64,000 nt of DNA from Minisyncoccota bacterium (GTDB lineage Bacteria; Patescibacteriota; Minisyncoccia; Phycocordibacterales; DATDWN01): positions 2,369 to 66,368 of the forward strand of contig JBAZZC010000006.1 in assembly GCA_041658985.1 (NCBI GenBank), written 5' to 3'. Numbering within the stretch: position 1 is the first letter of the stretch; every line of letters begins with the position of its first letter. Both the position numbers and the translations under genes were made by a program. The notes beneath the pieces were generated by a model that was not told the origin of the DNA, searched no databases, and saw only the letters and a list, made by a program, of their open reading frames with translations. This document shows positions 6,952 to 63,142 of the stretch, piece by piece.

Positions 6952-7099
6952 ATTAATCCGAACACTAACTTTAGCATCGTTGCCTAGTGTTTTCGTATAT
7001 TATTACCCAATTTGATATTTACTATAGAATAATACATAGTTAATACTAAATAACAAGCAACAGTAAAAACACAATGCTAAAGTTAGTGTGCGGATAAAT
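6952..7099. repeat. Paired-arm inverted-repeat element, family 1 copy A (between divergent truB and hisS)
   Basis: Arms TTAATCCGAACACTAACTTTAGCATCGTTG and CAATGCTAAAGTTAGTGTGCGGATAAAT. The right arm ends 1 nt before the hisS ATG. The spacer is AT-rich with outward promoter-like hexamers. Confidence 0.65.
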
Positions 7100-14486: not shown

Positions 14487-14562
14487 GTGACCTCCAAAAA
14501 ACAAATATGACCCCATGGTCATTTCGCATTTATAGTAACATTTTATATTTTTTTACACAAAC

Positions 14563-14620
14563 AAAAAAGCCTCGTGCCGGTGGGGATGCCCACATTGGGC
14601 ACCCCACCTACACGAGACCG
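14563..14620 (-). terminator. Rho-independent terminator of GC-island gene 1
   Basis: GGTGGGGATGCCCA-CAT-TGGGCACCCCACC stem followed by a U-run on the minus strand. Confidence 0.6.
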
Positions 14621-14622
14621 CG

Positions 14623-15240
14623 TCAGAAGTTCAGCCTTAGACCGGCCGAACCCCCAACTTTCTTCCCTTCCTTGACCGGCGCGACCCAGAGGTCGAACGG
14701 ACCGAACGACCTCTCAATGTACGGCCCGGTTCCGACGAACCGAGTGGAATTGGCCCCGAGCTTCCAGGAGCCGAGACGGACGGTGCCGGTGTACCGATAC
14801 CAGTATCCGCTCCCGCCGTTCTCATGTGAACTCTCAAGAGTCACTCGACCCTTGCTAATCCACAAGTTGCCTGCGAAGCGAAGTGGCTTCCTGTTGGTCT
14901 CCGCACCAACCAAGAAAGCCACCTGGATGGAGTCAACGGGGGCAAACGTCAGACCGACGAGCCCTTCGGCCCATTTCTCGGTTGACCACTGTCCCCCATC
15001 CTCTGTCCACTGGTTCGTGCCCCACCCCCACACGGCCCACCCGAACTTGCCCTTGATGGGGCCTTCCAGATAGACCGTAACCGAGGGGCTCGTATGCCCC
15101 CCAACGTACTCGTTGTACGATTCGACGAATCGAGTTGGCTCCTGCGCCGACGCCGGCACAAGTGAGGCCACCATCATGACGAGCAAGATGATGACCGTGA
15201 CACCGAAAGTCCGCGGACGAGTATCCAGTGTGATGTCCAT
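14623..15240 (-). CDS. GC-rich secreted protein, possibly an outer-membrane beta-barrel (signal peptide, C-terminal ...LRLNF)
   Basis: 205 aa with an SP ending ASAQ. It has alternating hydrophobic beta-strand-like segments and a C-terminal Phe. ~62% GC with its own promoter and terminator. Confidence 0.5.
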   Translation of the reverse strand: MDITLDTRPRTFGVTVIILLVMMVASLVPASAQEPTRFVESYNEYVGGHTSPSVTVYLEGPIKGKFGWAVWGWGTNQWTEDGGQWSTEKWAEGLVGLTFAPVDSIQVAFLVGAETNRKPLRFAGNLWISKGRVTLESSHENGGSGYWYRYTGTVRLGSWKLGANSTRFVGTGPYIERSFGPFDLWVAPVKEGKKVGGSAGLRLNF

Positions 15241-15254
15241 TGAAACCTCTTTGG

Positions 15255-15330
15255 AATCGGCTGGGGCGACATGCCCCTCTGCTCACAACAATAGCACCAA
15301 AATATTAAATTGTCAATATAAAATTTTGAT
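15255..15330 (-). promoter_or_regulatory. Promoter/5'UTR module of island gene 1 (TTGACA-17-TATTGT, then a GGGGC..GCCCC hairpin)
   Basis: 40 nt are nearly identical to 16085-16125 upstream of the paralogue. Confidence 0.5.
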
Positions 15331-15333
15331 ACG

Positions 15334-15384
15334 AAAAAAGCCCCGTGCCTGCGGAACCCGAGATGGGTTCCGCCGCACGAGACC
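15334..15384 (-). terminator. Rho-independent terminator of GC-island gene 2
   Basis: GCGGAACCC-GAGAT-GGGTTCCGC followed by a U-run. The outer flanks are shared with the terminator at 14563-14620. Confidence 0.6.
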
Positions 15385-15389
15385 GCGCA

Positions 15390-16064
15390 CTACTTGGTCG
15401 ACGCCCAGTGGACACCGACGTAGTACATGTACTGCTTCGCGTTCCCGTTCCGAGAGACGCTCCCGGTAACCGAGAAGTTGTTGTTGACCCTCTGGGTGTA
15501 CGACACCCCAGGGATCCGGTTCAGCGGGTCGTCGAGGAAGTTGAGAAGCGTGTAAGTCAAGCCGACAGGCCCGATATTGGCGTTGAAGCTCGCCAAGTAC
15601 CCAATCCACAGCTTCTCGGGGTTAACCCCGGAGCGCCAGTTCCTCGGCTCGACGCCGATGAACAGACACGGCCACTGAAAAGTCCCTACCGAGACCTCCT
15701 GCCCGGCAATCTTGCCGACCGGCAGACTCATATTCAGGTAGGGACCGACCCACGGAGAGCCCTGGAAGTGCCCAGCCGAACCGGCGACGGTTCCTGTGAG
15801 CTTTCCGAGCTTGAACTCGGGCCCCCAGACAACCCACGCCTGCTCCTGCTGAAATGCCACCTCGAGAAGATGGCCCCGGCCGTTCTTGAAGTCGACGATC
15901 CCGGTTATGCCAGAGCTGATCGGATCCTCACCGGCGGACACCGTGGCACCGGACAGCTTGTAGCCGCCGGGGTCCGCAGGCGGAGTCGCCGTCTGTGCCT
16001 GCGCCGCGAACGGCGTGAGACAGAGGACAAACAGGATGGATGCGACGAGTGTCTGTCTCTTCAC
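15390..16064 (-). CDS. Paralogous GC-rich secreted protein (GTG start, signal peptide ...AAQAQ)
   Basis: Start moved to the GTG at 16064, behind the duplicated promoter module. N-terminal signal peptide; overall similar architecture to 14623-15240. Confidence 0.45.
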   Translation of the reverse strand: MKRQTLVASILFVLCLTPFAAQAQTATPPADPGGYKLSGATVSAGEDPISSGITGIVDFKNGRGHLLEVAFQQEQAWVVWGPEFKLGKLTGTVAGSAGHFQGSPWVGPYLNMSLPVGKIAGQEVSVGTFQWPCLFIGVEPRNWRSGVNPEKLWIGYLASFNANIGPVGLTYTLLNFLDDPLNRIPGVSYTQRVNNNFSVTGSVSRNGNAKQYMYYVGVHWASTK

Positions 16065-16084
16065 GTTGGTCCTTTCGGTATCTT

Positions 16085-16140
16085 GGAGGCGACATGCCCC
16101 TCTGCTCACAACAATAGCACCAAACATCCATTTTGTCAAT
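16085..16140 (-). promoter_or_regulatory. Duplicated promoter/5'UTR module of island gene 2
   Basis: TTGACA...TATTGT plus the same GC hairpin as upstream of gene 1. Confidence 0.45.
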
Positions 16141-16202
16141 ATATCTCCTCCCCCCACCTTCACACAATAAAACCTTTAATCTCGTTGAACTAAAATCTTT
16201 TT

Positions 16203-26461: not shown

Positions 26462-26604
26462 ATAAATCCGAACACCAACTTTGACATCGTTACTTCTGTC
26501 CCAAGTTTTGCTAACCAGACTTATCTATGTGTCCATCAATACTTAATGGGTCATATCATTAAAGTAACAATGGGACAATGTCAAAGTTGGTGTGCGGATA
26601 AAAA
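26462..26604. repeat. Paired-arm inverted-repeat element, family 1 copy B (rpoB upstream/leader region)
   Basis: Arms AATCCGAACACCAACTTTGACATCGTTACTTCTGTCCCA and TGGGACAATGTCAAAGTTGGTGTGCGGATAAAA. The arm-specific variants CCAACTTTGAC co-vary in both arms. Confidence 0.65.
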
Positions 26605-27912: not shown

Positions 27913-28055
27913 TTTATCCGCACACTAACTCTGGTATCGTTGCCTCGTCTCCAGATTTAGTTGTGGTTATTTTTATTTGCGTTTATAAAAGTAATAAATT
28001 TAATATTAATTATGGCAACACTGGAGACAATACCAGAGTTAGTGTTCGGATTAAT
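27913..28055. repeat. Paired-arm inverted-repeat element, family 1 copy C (between the small ORF and lexA)
   Basis: Arms TTTATCCGCACACTAACTCTGGTATCGTTGCCTCGTCTCCAG and CTGGAGACAATACCAGAGTTAGTGTTCGGATTAAT (~40 bp). The left arm ends 5 nt before the lexA ATG. Confidence 0.65.
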
Positions 28056-54596: not shown

Positions 54597-54641
54597 TCAT
54601 AATTTATCATTACTCAACTTAAAAATTATTTAATATCTCAT

Positions 54642-55028
54642 TTACGCCATGGCTGAAATGGAAGAGTTGTATGGTTGTGCTAATTTAAATGTTTTGAATT
54701 TATTCCTTATTTTTATCTCCTCAAGGTAGCTTAGAAATTGTTTTGGCAGTGGTGACGGCCCGACCCAAATACTCTTTTGTATCATGACATATCCAAATTT
54801 AATTAAATGTCGCCTAAACCAATCTCTTTCTTTTTTTAGCTCGTGTGGAATATCATACATGACGATAAGATTTTTTGGTAAACTTTTATTGAAAGGAGAC
54901 TGGAAAGAAATATGATATGGGTTTCTTTTTTTTATTACTGATTTGTTGTTTTGTTTTTTAGTAGATACTGGTAAACCAAACATATTTACTTTCACACCTT
55001 TATAATTAAAAATTTTTTGCTTACCCAT
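54642..55028 (-). CDS. Solo Cas2/VapD-superfamily protein with a ~45-aa Lys-rich N-terminal extension
   Basis: LIVMYDIPHELKKERDWFRRHLIKFGYVMIQKSIWVG parallels the Cas2 pattern (ILMFDMP..ERK.YRKFRKFL..GF.M.Q.SVY). No cas1 or CRISPR array nearby. Confidence 0.45.
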   Translation of the reverse strand: MGKQKIFNYKGVKVNMFGLPVSTKKQNNKSVIKKRNPYHISFQSPFNKSLPKNLIVMYDIPHELKKERDWFRRHLIKFGYVMIQKSIWVGPSPLPKQFLSYLEEIKIRNKFKTFKLAQPYNSSISAMA

Positions 55029-55050
55029 ATATTCTATTATACACTACTAT

Positions 55051-55078
55051 CCCCATATACGCCATGGCGTATATGGGG
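55051..55078. promoter_or_regulatory. 28-bp perfect palindrome CCCCATATACGCCATGGCGTATATGGGG overlapping the -35 region of the Cas2-like gene
   Basis: It lies directly upstream of TGTATAAT (extended -10), which ends 8 nt before the ATG of 54642-55028, suggesting a leaderless mRNA. Confidence 0.5.
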
Positions 55079-55159
55079 ATATACAGTATTGTTAGTGTTT
55101 TTATATAGTTGTTTGTATAACAAAGGGCTGGTCGAGTTGACCAGCCCCAAGAACACACA

Positions 55160-55714
55160 TCAGTCTCTGTCGGCCCTGTGCCGATCTGATTCGGTACGCT
55201 TCACAGCATGTGTGGCACGTTCTGCTCGCACCTGCGCCACAATCTTGCGTTTCCGCTCGAGGAGATCGGTCGGGGAGCCAGGATCACCACACAGTTGTTG
55301 TAGATAGAATTCGCTCAGGCGCCGAGCACCTGCCAGACTGGCTTTGTCACGAGCAGGCTCAGAGTGAAGCCGGATGAGGTGGAAAGCCTCGTTCTGATCC
55401 ACTCGAGCAATATGCTCAATGACGGCCACCCAAACAGCTGACAGAAGAGAATTTCTGTAGATCTCCTTGAAAATCTCCAGGTCCCCGATCTGTTGGAGTT
55501 GACGCAGAGCATCGTAGGCTGCATCCTGGTCTACTCCAATTGCAATCTCGTACAGCCGGCGCCCCAACCGGAATGCATCCGCTACACTCCTTGCAAAAAC
55601 CTTGCGATACTTACGAAAGAACTCTGTGTCTTTCGTAGTCACTTCATGTTCTGAGAGAATCTGAAGTGTTGAGTTGATCTCCGTTCCCGTCATGGACGAA
55701 AGTAAGCTGGCCAT
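55160..55714 (-). CDS. GC-rich cassette gene (184 aa, hypothetical)
   Basis: TTGACA-16-TATAAAT promoter and RBS GGAG. Terminator GGGCTGGTC-AACTC-GACCAGCCC plus U-run at 55110-55145. Confidence 0.45.
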   Translation of the reverse strand: MASLLSSMTGTEINSTLQILSEHEVTTKDTEFFRKYRKVFARSVADAFRLGRRLYEIAIGVDQDAAYDALRQLQQIGDLEIFKEIYRNSLLSAVWVAVIEHIARVDQNEAFHLIRLHSEPARDKASLAGARRLSEFYLQQLCGDPGSPTDLLERKRKIVAQVRAERATHAVKRTESDRHRADRD

Positions 55715-55881
55715 ATGGCTGGCTCCTTCTAATAAGGTAACTGCTGGCTCGGGATGAGCTGGCTCAAAGTTACCCTTTCCGTGTTTATTTATACTCTAAA
55801 AGCTACGTCTGTCAACAGAATGAGGAGAGTTCTTCTACATTTGACATTGACACAAGATTTAAGATTTTGTAGGATAAAAAG

Positions 55882-55944
55882 GTGAAATCAGCATTAAGAA
55901 CTACAACAACCACAACAACAACTATTCTGCCCTCCTCGAGGTAG
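55882..55944 (+). CDS. thrS leader peptide, 20 codons with eight consecutive Thr codons (MKSALRTTTTTTTTILPSSR)
   Basis: GTG start with AGGA 6 nt upstream. The codons are ACT ACA ACA ACC ACA ACA ACA ACT. A terminator hairpin follows 29 nt after the stop, and thrS starts at 56044. Confidence 0.4.
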   Translation: MKSALRTTTTTTTTILPSSR

Positions 55945-55972
55945 TGGTTTTGTTAAAATCAAACTTTAACTG

Positions 55973-56004
55973 AACGGGCCTCGAAAGAGGGCCGTTTCGT
56001 TTTT
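55973..56004 (+). terminator. Attenuator terminator between the Thr leader peptide and thrS
   Basis: AACGGGCCTC-GAAA-GAGGGCCGTT plus TCGTTTTT. The leader 3' segment GCCCTCCTCGAGG can pair alternatively with CCTCGA / GAGGGC. Confidence 0.5.
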
Positions 56005-56043
56005 ATTAGATTATTTAATACAAATAGGATAATATATAAACAT

Positions 56044-57801
56044 ATGGAAAAGGAAAAATTAGAGAAAATAAGACATTCACTCTCACACCTCATGAGTATG
56101 GCAGTCCAAGAACTGTATCCACAAGTTGGCCTGGGAGTTGGACCAGCCATTGATAATGGTTTTTATCAAGACTACGACTTACCAGAAGCAATTACCCCAG
56201 AAATTCTACCGAAACTAGAGAAACGAATCAGAGAAATGATAAAAGAAAATATTGAGTTCAAACAACACAATATGGATTTTGACAAAGCTTACAAATTATA
56301 CGTTCACGACCCTTATAAAACTTGGTTTATTGATGATTTGAAAGCACGAGGAGAAAAATATGTTAGCTTTTATAAATCTGATTGGTTCGACAACCTCTGT
56401 GCCGGTCCACACGTTAATTCAACCAAGGAAATTGACCCTGAAACCTTTCGGTTAGACAGAATTGCTGGAGCGTATTGGCGAGGAGATGAAAAAAATAAAA
56501 TGCTTACTCGTATTTATGGACTAGCTTTTGAATCAAAAGAGGTTCTGGATGCATATATCCTCCAACAAGAAGAAGCTAAGAAAAGAGACCACAGAAAGCT
56601 TGGTGTAGAGCTTGACCTTTTTCACTTTTCAGACACCGTTGGTAAGGGTCTTCCCCTCTTTACTCCAAAAGGAGCAACTATCAGGCGCGAACTGGAAAGA
56701 TTTATTATTGATGAAGAAATAAAACGTGGATATTTACACGTTAAGACACCAGACCTTGCTAGGTTGGACCTGTTCAAAAAATCTGGTCATTATCCTCATT
56801 ACAAAGATTCAATGTATGCCCCAATAAAGATTGATGATGAAGAATTTATGCTAAGACCCATGACCTGTCCTCATCACTTTGAACTTTACCTGAGACAACC
56901 ACACAGTTATCGTGAGTTACCAATGAGAATTGCCGAACTTGCCCAACTCTATCGCTACGAACAATCTGGTGAATTGTCGGGGCTTCTTCGAGTGAGAACA
57001 TTTTGCTTGGCCGATGCTCATATAATTTGTGCGTCACCCGAACAAGCTGTTTCTGAAATTGGTAAAGCCTTGGACCTCATAGAATATGTTTCTGGGGTTT
57101 TTGGACTCAAGCATGGAGAAAATTTCTGGTATAGATTATCTTTGGGCGACAGAAATAACACCGAAAAATATTTTAAAAATGACTCCGCCTGGGACATGGG
57201 TGAGGACCTTCTAAGAAAACACCTACAATCTCGCGGTTCTTATTTTGTTGAGGCGCCGGGAGAGGCTGCATTTTACGGACCAAAGGTTGATATCCAAATG
57301 AAAAATATTAACGGAAAAGAGGACACTGCTTTCACTGTGCAGTATGATTTTTGTATGCCGGAGAGATTTGACCTGACTTACACAGCAGAAGACGGTTCCA
57401 AAAAACAGGCTGTGGTAGTTCATCGGTCATCTATTGGTGCGATTGAACGCATAATGGCCTTTCTCATTGAACACTATGCTGGAAACTTCCCTCTTTGGCT
57501 TTCTCCGGTGCAAATCAAAGTAATTCCAGTCAGGACAAACCATAATGAGTATGCAAAAAAAGTTTTTGATTTGTTAAAAGAAAGTGGAATTCGTGCAGAG
57601 ATTGATGTTGAGGATTCAAATCTTGGAGGAAAAGTTCGAGAGACCAAAAATCAAAGAATTCCATATTGGATTGTTGTTGGAGACAAAGAAGTAGAAGCAG
57701 ATAAAGTTAATCTAGAATCTCGTGACGCAGGTCAGCTTGGACAAATGACAGCCAAAGAGTTGGTTTCAAAACTCTTAGAAGAAATCAAACACAAAAAATA
57801 A
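56044..57801 (+). CDS. thrS: Threonyl-tRNA synthetase (short form lacking the N-terminal TGS domain)
   Basis: Editing-domain HxxxH (HSLSHLM), class II core and C-terminal anticodon-binding domain. 585 aa. Confidence 0.95.
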   Translation: MEKEKLEKIRHSLSHLMSMAVQELYPQVGLGVGPAIDNGFYQDYDLPEAITPEILPKLEKRIREMIKENIEFKQHNMDFDKAYKLYVHDPYKTWFIDDLKARGEKYVSFYKSDWFDNLCAGPHVNSTKEIDPETFRLDRIAGAYWRGDEKNKMLTRIYGLAFESKEVLDAYILQQEEAKKRDHRKLGVELDLFHFSDTVGKGLPLFTPKGATIRRELERFIIDEEIKRGYLHVKTPDLARLDLFKKSGHYPHYKDSMYAPIKIDDEEFMLRPMTCPHHFELYLRQPHSYRELPMRIAELAQLYRYEQSGELSGLLRVRTFCLADAHIICASPEQAVSEIGKALDLIEYVSGVFGLKHGENFWYRLSLGDRNNTEKYFKNDSAWDMGEDLLRKHLQSRGSYFVEAPGEAAFYGPKVDIQMKNINGKEDTAFTVQYDFCMPERFDLTYTAEDGSKKQAVVVHRSSIGAIERIMAFLIEHYAGNFPLWLSPVQIKVIPVRTNHNEYAKKVFDLLKESGIRAEIDVEDSNLGGKVRETKNQRIPYWIVVGDKEVEADKVNLESRDAGQLGQMTAKELVSKLLEEIKHKK

Positions 57802-60180: not shown

Positions 60181-60424
60181 GATTTTCTGGTATTTTTCTT
60201 TAATTATATAGTATGTATTATAGCAAAAAGTGGAGTCAGAAGCTAGTCTTTTTTGGTATTATTTTGCGTCTTTGTGTGGATATGTTAGACTTATTTTATG
60301 AGCAAAAATCTACAGCAAAACACAGTTGGATTTTTCTTCTTTAGCACTCAATCCCGAGAGCCGATGTTTGTGCTGTAGAAACCCCAAAAACTTACAACCT
60401 AAACACCAGCTCTCGAGGCTGGTG

Positions 60425-60570
60425 TTTACCCGCTACACTAACTTTACCATTGTTTTTGTATTCTAATTCAAAATGTTGTTGAATAGTGTTTTTTTCATGA
60501 GACTACTGAAAATAATAGTAGTATTCTGTTAGAAAAACAGAATGATGGTAAAGTTAGTGTGCGGGTTTAC
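60425..60570. repeat. Paired-arm inverted-repeat element, family 1 copy D (between divergent gyrB and pheS)
   Basis: Arms TTTACCCGCTACACTAACTTTACCATTG and AATGATGGTAAAGTTAGTGTGCGGGTTTAC. The arm-specific variants CCCGC and TTTACCAT co-vary. Confidence 0.6.
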
Positions 60571-60602: not shown

Positions 60603-61418
60603 ATGAAAAAAACCATCTATAAAGTGCCAACAGACGAACAAGATAAGCTCTTAAAAGAGTTGGAAGGCAGGAGTGATACAGAGGCAGTACGAATAAAACA
60701 CTACTTAGCCATGGAGGACTTGTCTCGAACAAAAGGCAACCCTTTATGTGAAATTGTAGAAAAAGTAACAAATTTACCGAATTTGAAGGATTTTGACCAC
60801 ATTAATATCCCAGAAGTTATACCAACAAGTATAATCTTTGATTTGTTCGGTTTTTCGGCTGATCATCCAGCTCGAAGTAAATCTGACACATATTATGTAG
60901 ACGAGAAAAATGTTTTGCGTACGCACGATACGGTTATGTGGTATTACTATTTCAACTTACCAGAAGTAAAAGAAAAAATAGCAAGGGGTGAGGATTTGGG
61001 AGTCTTCTGTTATGGTAAAGTCTACCGTAAGGATGAGATAGACCGAAAACACATGAATATTTTCCACCAAATGGGCGCTCTTTATCTTGTGCCAGACAGT
61101 AAAAGAACGGTACCGTTTGATGAATTAAAAAAGGTGTTGGCAGATATTGTAGAAACAGTTTTCGGAAAAGAGATAAAATATCGTTTCTCTCCTGAGACAT
61201 TCCCCTACACAGACCCATCGACTGAAGTCGAAGTTGAAATAAATAACGAATGGTTTGAGATACTAGGTAGTGGTATGCCAAAAAAGGAGGTTTTGAAAAA
61301 TTTTGGTATTGAAGGTTATAACGGTTGGGCTTTTGGATTTGGTCTGGAAAGACTAGCTATAATTGACATGGAATTACCTGATATTCGCCGCTTTGGTCAA
61401 AAGACCCAAGGGTTATAA
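60603..61418 (+). CDS. pheS: Phenylalanyl-tRNA synthetase catalytic core of mitochondrial/monomeric type (no N-terminal coiled coil), truncated by a frameshift
   Basis: HPARSKSDTYYV, LRTH, GKVYRKDEIDRKHMNIFHQ, motif 2 YRFSPETFPYTDPSTEVEVEI and motif 3 AFGFGLERLAII. Ends ...DIRRFGQKTQGL*. Confidence 0.8.
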   Translation: MKKTIYKVPTDEQDKLLKELEGRSDTEAVRIKHYLAMEDLSRTKGNPLCEIVEKVTNLPNLKDFDHINIPEVIPTSIIFDLFGFSADHPARSKSDTYYVDEKNVLRTHDTVMWYYYFNLPEVKEKIARGEDLGVFCYGKVYRKDEIDRKHMNIFHQMGALYLVPDSKRTVPFDELKKVLADIVETVFGKEIKYRFSPETFPYTDPSTEVEVEINNEWFEILGSGMPKKEVLKNFGIEGYNGWAFGFGLERLAIIDMELPDIRRFGQKTQGL

Positions 61419-63001: not shown

Positions 63002-63142
63002 ATCCGCACACTAACTCTAGCATTGTCTTTTTTGTTGCAGGGGTTAGTATCAAAATAATAGATTTTATTAATATAATAGTAGATAGCATTACTAAGTTTG
63101 GAAAGACGATGCAACGATGCCAGAGTTAGTGTGCGGATAAAA
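63000..63142. repeat. Paired-arm inverted-repeat element, family 1 copy E (between the GT2 stop and the next gene's start)
   Basis: Arms AAATCCGCACACTAACTCTAGCATTGTC and GATGCCAGAGTTAGTGTGCGGATAAAAC. The left arm starts at the GT2 stop codon and the right arm ends 1 nt before the ATG at 63144. Confidence 0.65.

Follow-up and report, generated by a model that had tools for sequence, protein, structure and literature searches.

A probable leader-peptide transcription attenuator with eight threonine codons upstream of thrS in a Patescibacteria genome

Patescibacteria (Candidate Phyla Radiation, CPR) make up a large share of bacterial diversity and have tiny genomes, and their gene regulation is almost unstudied. 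Here, we analysed the region upstream of thrS, the gene for threonyl-tRNA synthetase (ThrRS), in a 64,000-nucleotide (nt) stretch of a Minisyncoccota genome (GenBank GCA_041658985.1, contig JBAZZC010000006.1, positions 2,369-66,368 of the forward strand). The whole of this stretch is called the window below, and all coordinates are positions in it. A short open reading frame (ORF) with eight consecutive Thr codons, followed by an intrinsic terminator, was found ahead of thrS. The sequence, its folding and the recurrence of the arrangement in related loci together make it likely that this element is a ribosome-mediated (leader-peptide) transcription attenuator, which would match thrS transcription to the availability of charged tRNA-Thr. 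The element has the sequence-level hallmarks of the attenuator class, among them a putative promoter, and it matches neither the Rfam Thr_leader nor a T-box nor the E. coli thrS operator.

Results

The thrS leader combines a threonine-rich ORF with an intrinsic terminator

The thrS gene is separated by a gap of 329 nt (55715-56043) from a divergent ORF on the minus strand (55160-55714). On the thrS strand, this gap contains, in order, a promoter, the leader ORF, a hairpin and a U-tract, after which thrS begins. The features, with the basis of each assignment, are as follows:

55847..55852, plus strand: -35 hexamer TTGACA (consensus scan), with an overlapping second TTGACA at 55841-55846
55870..55875, plus strand: -10 hexamer TAGGAT, ending 6 nt 5' of the leader GTG and containing AGGA (consensus scan; TAnnnT geometry)
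55882..55944, plus strand: leader ORF of 20 codons plus stop, encoding VKSALRTTTTTTTTILPSSR, with a GTG start at 55882 and a TAG stop ending at 55944
55900..55923, plus strand: eight consecutive Thr codons (ACT ACA ACA ACC ACA ACA ACA ACT), the putative regulatory codons (region 1)
55929..55942, plus strand: antiterminator 5' strand GCCCUCCUCGAGGU, made up of the last five sense codons and the first stop-codon base, predicted to pair with both terminator arms (folding, -29.3 kcal/mol)
55945..55955, plus strand: G/U-rich segment GUGGUUUUGUU, complementary to the Thr codons (folding)
55974..55995, plus strand: terminator hairpin, ACGGGCCUC, GAAA loop, GAGGGCCGU (-14.2 kcal/mol for the core, -17.7 with flanks)
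55996..56007, plus strand: terminator U-tract UUCGUUUUUAUU (sequence; the minus strand has no equivalent)
56030..56035, plus strand: possible weak proximal -10 hexamer TAATAT, 8 nt before the thrS ATG; uncertain, below the promoter-scan threshold
56044..57801, plus strand: thrS, threonine--tRNA ligase, 585 aa, full length with editing domain (TIGR00418, 636 bits), the gene proposed to be regulated

A preliminary description of this DNA, made from the sequence alone, had named a TTGACA-17-TAGGAT promoter, a 20-codon ORF with a GTG start, a run of eight Thr codons and a strong intrinsic terminator before thrS; all of them are present at the positions listed. The promoter agrees with the consensus at 10 of 12 positions over its two hexamers, which are 17 nt apart, and it is the joint best in a 4-kb scan by consensus match alone. 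An in-frame TAG at 55870 makes GTG 55882 the sole possible start of the leader, which is located 99 nt before thrS on the same strand. The pattern (ACN)8 has a single match in the 64-kb window and was found in none of 100 dinucleotide-preserving shuffles. The product of thrS itself is 100% identical to a protein named threonine--tRNA ligase from a Candidatus Paceibacterota metagenome-assembled genome.

The intrinsic terminator (55974-56007) ends 37 nt before thrS, and the hairpin is followed by 48 AU-rich nt up to the thrS ATG, the first 12 of which are the U-tract. We considered whether it might belong to a minus-strand transcript, a possibility that had been raised as a check on the original proposal. 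This was rejected, since the upstream gene is divergent and the minus-strand sequence after the hairpin, TTCAGTTAAAG, contains no U-tract. The nearest minus-strand gene able to run into the hairpin is gyrB, which ends 2 kb off, beyond thrS. Nor does any plus-strand gene end 5' of the hairpin, the neighbour being divergent.

The leader RNA is predicted to adopt two exclusive structures

The minimum-free-energy (MFE) fold of the leader is the antiterminator (-29.3 kcal/mol), while the terminator hairpin alone reaches -14 to -18 kcal/mol. In the antiterminator, GCCCUC (55929-34) pairs with GAGGGC (55987-92) and UCGAGGU (55936-42) pairs with GCCUCGA (55978-84), giving 13 bp in all. The earlier suggestion that a leader segment could pair with either half of the terminator was thus borne out by folding, which yields two exclusive structures. 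The position of the ribosome was then modelled by masking the covered bases before constrained folding. A ribosome placed at the leader stop codon left the terminator intact (8/8 stem pairs), and one with its A site on Thr codons 1-3 gave the antiterminator and no terminator pair. A weaker hairpin (-10.8 kcal/mol) joins the Thr codons at 55914-55924 with GUGGUUUUGUU at 55945-55955. It resembles the 1:2 pairing of classical attenuators and may be a pause or protector hairpin; GUGGU-rich segments analogous to GUGGUUUUGUU are present in three related thrS loci (L017, L127 and L154).

These structures suggest the following mechanism. The transcript would begin some 7 nt downstream of TAGGAT, on the GUG at 55882 or a neighbouring base, and the leader ORF would be translated as a leaderless mRNA. 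When Thr-tRNA(Thr) is plentiful, the ribosome would pass the eight Thr codons and reach the UAG at 55942-44, covering 55929-55942, so that the hairpin at 55974-55995 could form with its U-tract and RNA polymerase would terminate before thrS. When Thr-tRNA(Thr) is scarce, either through low threonine or through low ThrRS activity, the ribosome would stall on the first five or so Thr codons; 55929-55942 would then be free to pair with both terminator arms (-29 kcal/mol), and the polymerase would read into thrS. Because charged Thr-tRNA would favour termination, the product of ThrRS would exert negative feedback on ThrRS synthesis. The sequence elements, the two exclusive folds with their dependence on the masked segment, and the recurrence of the design ahead of thrS are shown by the analysis; that transcription starts at this point, that the ORF is translated, that ribosome and polymerase are coupled and that threonine has this effect is what we infer.

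Promoter geometry points to leaderless translation of the leader ORF

The AGGA at 55871-55874 had initially been taken for a Shine-Dalgarno (SD) sequence of the leader ORF. This assignment was dropped, because the motif lies inside the -10 hexamer and the roles in promoter and transcript exclude each other. Among nine Thr-codon leaders found upstream of Patescibacteria thrS genes (described below), no SD was detected apart from this coincidental AGGA in the window. A TAnnnT hexamer ends 6-9 nt 5' of the leader start in 7/9 of these loci (background 6.3%, binomial P = 1e-7), and five leaders have a TTGACN -35 element at a distance of 16-17 nt; a -35 of this type (TTGACA, TTGACC or TTGACT) is shared with the window by L084, L127, L017, L089 and L154. 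SD-like motifs are likewise found at only 3 of 40 gene starts in the window and 7 of 127 thrS starts, while the leaderless geometry (TAnnnT 6-9 nt 5' of the start) is seen for 68 of 127 thrS genes and for many window genes, including two putative GTG starts. Judged by this geometry, translation of the leader ORF most likely takes place on a leaderless mRNA whose first base belongs to the GTG or is close beside it, and leaderless mRNAs look like the dominant mode in this lineage.

Threonine-codon leaders recur upstream of thrS in Patescibacteria

To place the window in context, 160 Patescibacteria thrS loci were collected, of which 127 were unique with at least 150 nt upstream. A short ORF with 4-9 consecutive Thr codons on the thrS strand was found in nine of these 127 loci, the window included. 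In eight of the nine, L025 being the exception, a canonical terminator hairpin and its U-tract separate the ORF from the gene that follows; in all of the eight other lineages except L025, this G+C-rich hairpin and U-tract sit 21-37 nt past the leader stop. The leader peptides of the other loci read as follows:

L084: MIPRLTTTTTTTTTLLEEAVFAV
L089: MKCIRTTTTTTAHKPFGEGLLV
L017: VNTHYTTTTTTDICC
L029: VLRNSHTATTQTTTTTTEVGF
L118: MRVKNIFTTTTITLGPVGE
L127: MFANASTTTTT
L154: MMRKRYTTTTATRNLF
L025 (atypical): MIVSNLLSVKFYTTTTTPFGGNF

Each of these is followed by a stop codon. Two further candidates were not counted: a Thr-rich window in L057, which lacks a start codon, and the sequence ending in IKTTT before its stop in L032 and L033, which is the C-terminus of the upstream gene.

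In 50 kb of sequence upstream of thrS, there are 6 runs of at least five ACN codons, versus two in 1.54 Mb of other sequence (both strands), a 92-fold enrichment. One of the two background runs is in fact the L084 leader, which stands ahead of a two-gene operon ending in thrS. No enrichment of other codon families or repeat phases was found upstream of thrS, and a search of all 1.5 Mb of the loci for short ORFs with homopolymeric runs gave nothing convincing beyond the thrS leaders and a putative leader before pheS in the window. The third positions of the Thr-run codons vary freely across loci (A18, C17, T14, G4), which indicates that the codon or amino acid is under selection, not a CA-rich nucleotide motif.

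The fold switch recurs as well. The same change of structure between the first Thr codons and the stop codon was obtained for L084, L029, L118 and L154, and in part for L017. The segment that pairs best with the terminator 5' arm lies at or beside the leader stop codon in each of the eight canonical loci, and the complementarity between the stop-codon segment and this arm exceeds that of shuffled sequences (Fisher combined p = 4e-7, eight loci). The fold switch, the recurrence and the 92-fold enrichment thus give in silico support to a Thr-leader attenuator on thrS, as the preliminary description had proposed.

Loci with a leader are dispersed over a dendrogram of ThrRS similarity. Leaders of different lineages show about 40% identity in global alignment and are not alignable. 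Two sister pairs carry the leader in both members, namely L029/L118 at 77% and L017/L084 at 79% ThrRS core identity; their leader DNA is 37-45% identical versus 60-74% for the thrS coding sequence. The leader is therefore kept in these pairs while its DNA has diverged, which suggests retention of the features amid sequence turnover, with repeated gain and loss elsewhere, as is typical of attenuators.

Two side observations were made on these loci. In L084, positions 355-1466, the nine-Thr leader and terminator are followed by a gene of the DIT1_PvcA family (PF05141, E = 5e-49) and then by thrS, so that this PvcA-like enzyme appears, from the gene order, to be co-regulated by Thr-tRNA availability. 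In addition, about half of the recovered Patescibacteria ThrRS genes are short (about 405-420 aa; many among L033-L080 and L109-L160); their start corresponds to about residue 175 of the window protein, and the N-terminal (editing) part is therefore missing from them.

T-box-like leaders precede other Patescibacteria thrS genes

The preliminary description had asked for a check on T-box features, and none was found in the window: there is no GGUGGNACCRCG core, no nhmmer match and no Stem I. Rfam returned no T-box, Thr_leader or other family at E <= 10 over 55000-57000, and at the gathering threshold a single tRNA was the sole match in the whole window. Nineteen related loci likewise gave no Rfam match at the gathering threshold.

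On the other hand, a sequence profile built from core-containing loci revealed a T-box-like leader in 28 of the 127 loci, 17 of which contain the GGUGGNACCRCG core. The Rfam T-box model (RF00230) matched 6/7 tested loci over its full length (E 2e-7 to 2.5e-4), with a shortened Stem I. These leaders score 35-46 bits versus the Rfam gathering score of 93 (L087, L088, L096, L115, L131, L133 and 22 other loci), and they therefore escape standard annotation. No locus has both a Thr leader and a T-box-like element. Overall, about 7% of the thrS loci carry a Thr leader and about 22% a T-box-like leader, and the remainder are bare, often with a leaderless promoter. From this distribution, the two sensors look like interchangeable solutions for thrS; Naville and Gautheret described an exchange of T-box and leader peptide for hisS (PMC2965389).

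Discussion

Weighing the alternatives

Several observations weigh against an attenuator at this site. In the folding model, a ribosome on Thr codons 6-8 masks the 5' end of the antiterminator, and the terminator returns. Furthermore, the unmasked, untranslated leader RNA folds as the antiterminator; because untranslated RNA prefers this structure, termination would hinge entirely on a ribosome reaching the stop codon in time, and the switch would be ON by default in the absence of translation. For L089 and L127, the terminator persists in the MFE structure whatever the ribosome position, and L025 is laid out differently, with only a weak hairpin inside the ORF. The leader of the window starts with GTG, and a GTG start on a leaderless mRNA is inefficient in model bacteria. 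Moreover, to judge from its sequence and position, TAATAT at 56030-35 might be a weak second promoter giving an attenuator-independent, leaderless thrS mRNA. Lastly, the nearest thrS loci (70-76% ThrRS identity: L001, L002, L077 and L162-L164) have 40-100 nt upstream and no leader, and none was found in L161, another near relative. Because no close relative has this leader, purifying selection on the window copy is not demonstrable. Conservation of the Thr run, put forward earlier as a check on the proposal, therefore held only in part: the run recurs in eight distant lineages and two sister pairs, and it is absent in the nearest orthologous loci.

It is conceivable, although unlikely, that the Thr-rich ORF is an independent small unit (a small RNA or a Thr-rich micropeptide gene) that merely happens to be upstream, with thrS transcribed from its own leaderless promoter at 56030-56035. 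The -10-like hexamer 8 nt before the thrS ATG would fit this, having the geometry common to 68/127 thrS genes, and L017 has a perfect TATAAT in the same place, 3' of its terminator; attenuator-derived RNAs are also able to act in trans (PMC6614838). However, the proximal promoter in the window, with its poor -35, did not reach the threshold of the scan, and even if real it would supply basal expression on top of attenuation, not instead of it. The nine leaders share only the Thr run and the terminator/antiterminator, their peptides being otherwise unrelated, and they are located specifically upstream of thrS and on its strand, which is not expected of an independent gene. An antiterminator overlapping the end of the ORF would also have no role in a stand-alone gene. 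The absence of the leader from the nearest relatives could instead be read as the mark of a chance or decaying arrangement, in which a low-complexity ACA/ACC repeat came to lie by an ordinary hairpin and has no regulatory role. In L162, dnaE and thrS are just 40 nt apart, whereas in the window two minus-strand ORFs (54597-55714) plus the leader are inserted between them, an insertion of 1.45 kb that might have left such a repeat behind. We regard this as very improbable: no shuffle reproduced (ACN)8, the start, stop, promoter, terminator and 13-bp antiterminator are all properly positioned, and the arrangement has recurred independently in eight other lineages, specifically with Thr codons.

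We give hardly any credence to control by a trans-acting RNA or protein in place of the ribosome, whether through a divergent T-box or a ThrRS-binding operator as in E. coli, or to a Val-codon leader on the opposite strand serving the divergent gene. Although T-box-like leaders precede thrS in 28 related loci, the window matched none even at E <= 10 and is without the core motif and any nhmmer match. An operator of the E. coli type was rejected, since the start region of thrS is unstructured and has no hairpins like the anticodon arm of tRNA-Thr. Over 55996-56075 the folding energy is -4.8 kcal/mol, the same as for shuffles, so that the 48 nt from terminator to ATG offer no anticodon-like loop; the sole stable hairpin nearby carries a GAAA tetraloop. 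As for the opposite strand, the reverse complement of (ACN)n is poly-Val in one frame (ORF 55913-55812, VVVVVL...), but there is no minus-strand terminator between 55812 and the start of the divergent gene at 55714, the divergent gene is not valS, and the run is on the thrS strand in 9/9 loci. A Val-run leader was accordingly rejected.

Relation to known regulatory systems

Ribosome-mediated attenuation with runs of cognate codons is textbook knowledge for trp, his, thr and pheA. Among aminoacyl-tRNA synthetase (aaRS) genes, a close parallel is E. coli pheST with its leader pheM, which resembles the window element in combining an aaRS gene, a short ORF rich in cognate codons, an intrinsic terminator, an alternative antiterminator and a charged-tRNA signal. 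It differs in using Phe instead of Thr, in belonging to a gammaproteobacterium, in having pheM on a leadered mRNA and in showing no sequence relationship. The pheST attenuator is cited as aaRS precedent in PMC1262725, which also lists classical attenuators on trpS and leuS in Streptomyces; others are found on hisS paralogues in Bacillus (PMC2965389). The enterobacterial thrL leader (RF00506) similarly has a Thr-codon run in an ORF of about 20 codons, a terminator and attenuation by ribosome stalling, but it controls thrABC rather than thrS and mixes Ile with Thr codons. A search with RF00506 gave no match, either over 55000-57000 at E <= 10 or across the whole window at its gathering threshold.

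A thrS leader peptide has been proposed in a different phylum. In Streptomyces lividans TK24, thrL-thrS and alaL-alaS leader peptides were reported, with leader ORFs that are transcribed leaderless (PMC8079986). The S. lividans thrL peptide, MKRVRPFLETTPGFVPAR, is a weak candidate with two Thr codons and no clear Rho-independent terminator (PMC8079986), while in the window the Thr codons number eight, the terminator is canonical and the predicted antiterminator is clear. T-box thrS leaders, as on Bacillus thrS and thrZ and, in T-box-like form, in 28/127 Patescibacteria loci, control the same gene in response to tRNA-Thr charging through terminator versus antiterminator; they differ in their sensor, in that the leader RNA itself binds uncharged tRNA and no ribosome has to stall. 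The E. coli thrS operator also exerts feedback control of thrS through its 5' leader, but there ThrRS binds tRNA-like hairpins beside the ribosome-binding site and blocks translation, whereas control in the window would act at transcription termination. The earlier statement that a Thr-leader attenuator on thrS is not a commonly described arrangement therefore needs to be narrowed: aaRS attenuators on pheST, trpS, leuS and hisS and the weak thrL-thrS case of S. lividans are known, and what stands is that our literature search found no such regulation described for Patescibacteria. The mechanism itself is already known, as are aaRS attenuators, so the surprise to a specialist is moderate.

A plausible second attenuator and other features of the window

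The sole other aaRS gene identified in the window is pheS (60603-61418, plus strand), which has a gap of 420 nt upstream. This gap contains:

60298-60378, plus strand: short ORF of 26 codons, encoding MSKNLQQNTVGFFFFSTQSREPMFVL and a stop, with four consecutive Phe codons (FFFF)

The ORF has the promoter geometry TTGCGT-16-TAGACT-6-ATG, as for the thrS leader. Downstream of it comes a hairpin at 60400-60428; the GCUCUCG in the left arm and loop of this hairpin is complementary to a CGAGAGC within the ORF. A canonical U-tract appears only past a long hairpin at 60429-60567 (z = -7.5), which is one of six copies of a palindromic repeat. The Phe leader is absent in five relatives with a visible pheS, where about 90 nt lie upstream. 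On its sequence, a second, pheM-like attenuator is plausible here.

The palindromic element is about 125 nt long, and its six copies are as follows:

2875-2997
6962-7089
26472-26593
27922-28045
60435-60560
63008-63132

The ends are conserved (ATCCGCACACTAAC...GTTAGTGTGCGGATAAA; 12 arm matches versus 0.45 expected by chance) and the interior is variable. The arms are complementary within copies and different between copies, with compensatory changes in 11/28 stem pairs. All copies are intergenic, and five lie about 0-45 nt upstream of gene starts (rpoB, pheS and others); copy B (6962-7089) abuts or overlaps the starts at 6977 (minus strand) and 7088/7101 (plus strand). No Rfam family was found for this element, which could be a repeat resembling a miniature inverted-repeat transposable element, a promoter/operator module or a structured RNA.

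The two minus-strand ORFs between dnaE and thrS encode proteins of 128 and 184 aa; the former has a Cas2-like/PaaX_M domain (PF20803, E = 7e-13) and the latter has no family match. Two hairpins lie close by, one strong and palindromic (55039-55089), the other terminator-like (55148-55124, minus strand). A further peculiarity of the window is a GC-rich island at about 14500-16200 (55-65% GC versus about 38% elsewhere), where only overlapping ORFs on both strands and no Pfam or Rfam match were found; it could be foreign DNA or an assembly chimera.

Implications for Patescibacteria

To our knowledge, Patescibacteria generally lack amino-acid biosynthesis, which would explain why regulation is directed at the synthetase here and not at a biosynthetic operon as with thrL. 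In our literature search, no report of leader-peptide attenuation in Patescibacteria/CPR was found. Small leader ORFs of this sort are overlooked by gene callers and by Rfam. Since both aaRS genes identified in the window (thrS and pheS) appear to carry one, a broader proposal can be made, somewhat short of probable at present: that leader-peptide attenuation through leaderless leader ORFs recurrently controls aaRS genes in Patescibacteria, being gained and lost repeatedly and interchangeable with reduced T-boxes. The comparison of thrS loci already gives a clear example of a single essential gene whose regulatory sensor turns over. If this proposal is true, it would be the first regulatory RNA mechanism of its kind documented for Patescibacteria, and these ultra-small, mostly uncultured bacteria would couple transcription to translation and sense tRNA charging directly. 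For thrS itself, the attenuator would imply such transcription-translation coupling, and it offers a concrete, testable example of how Patescibacteria may match synthetase supply to tRNA charging.

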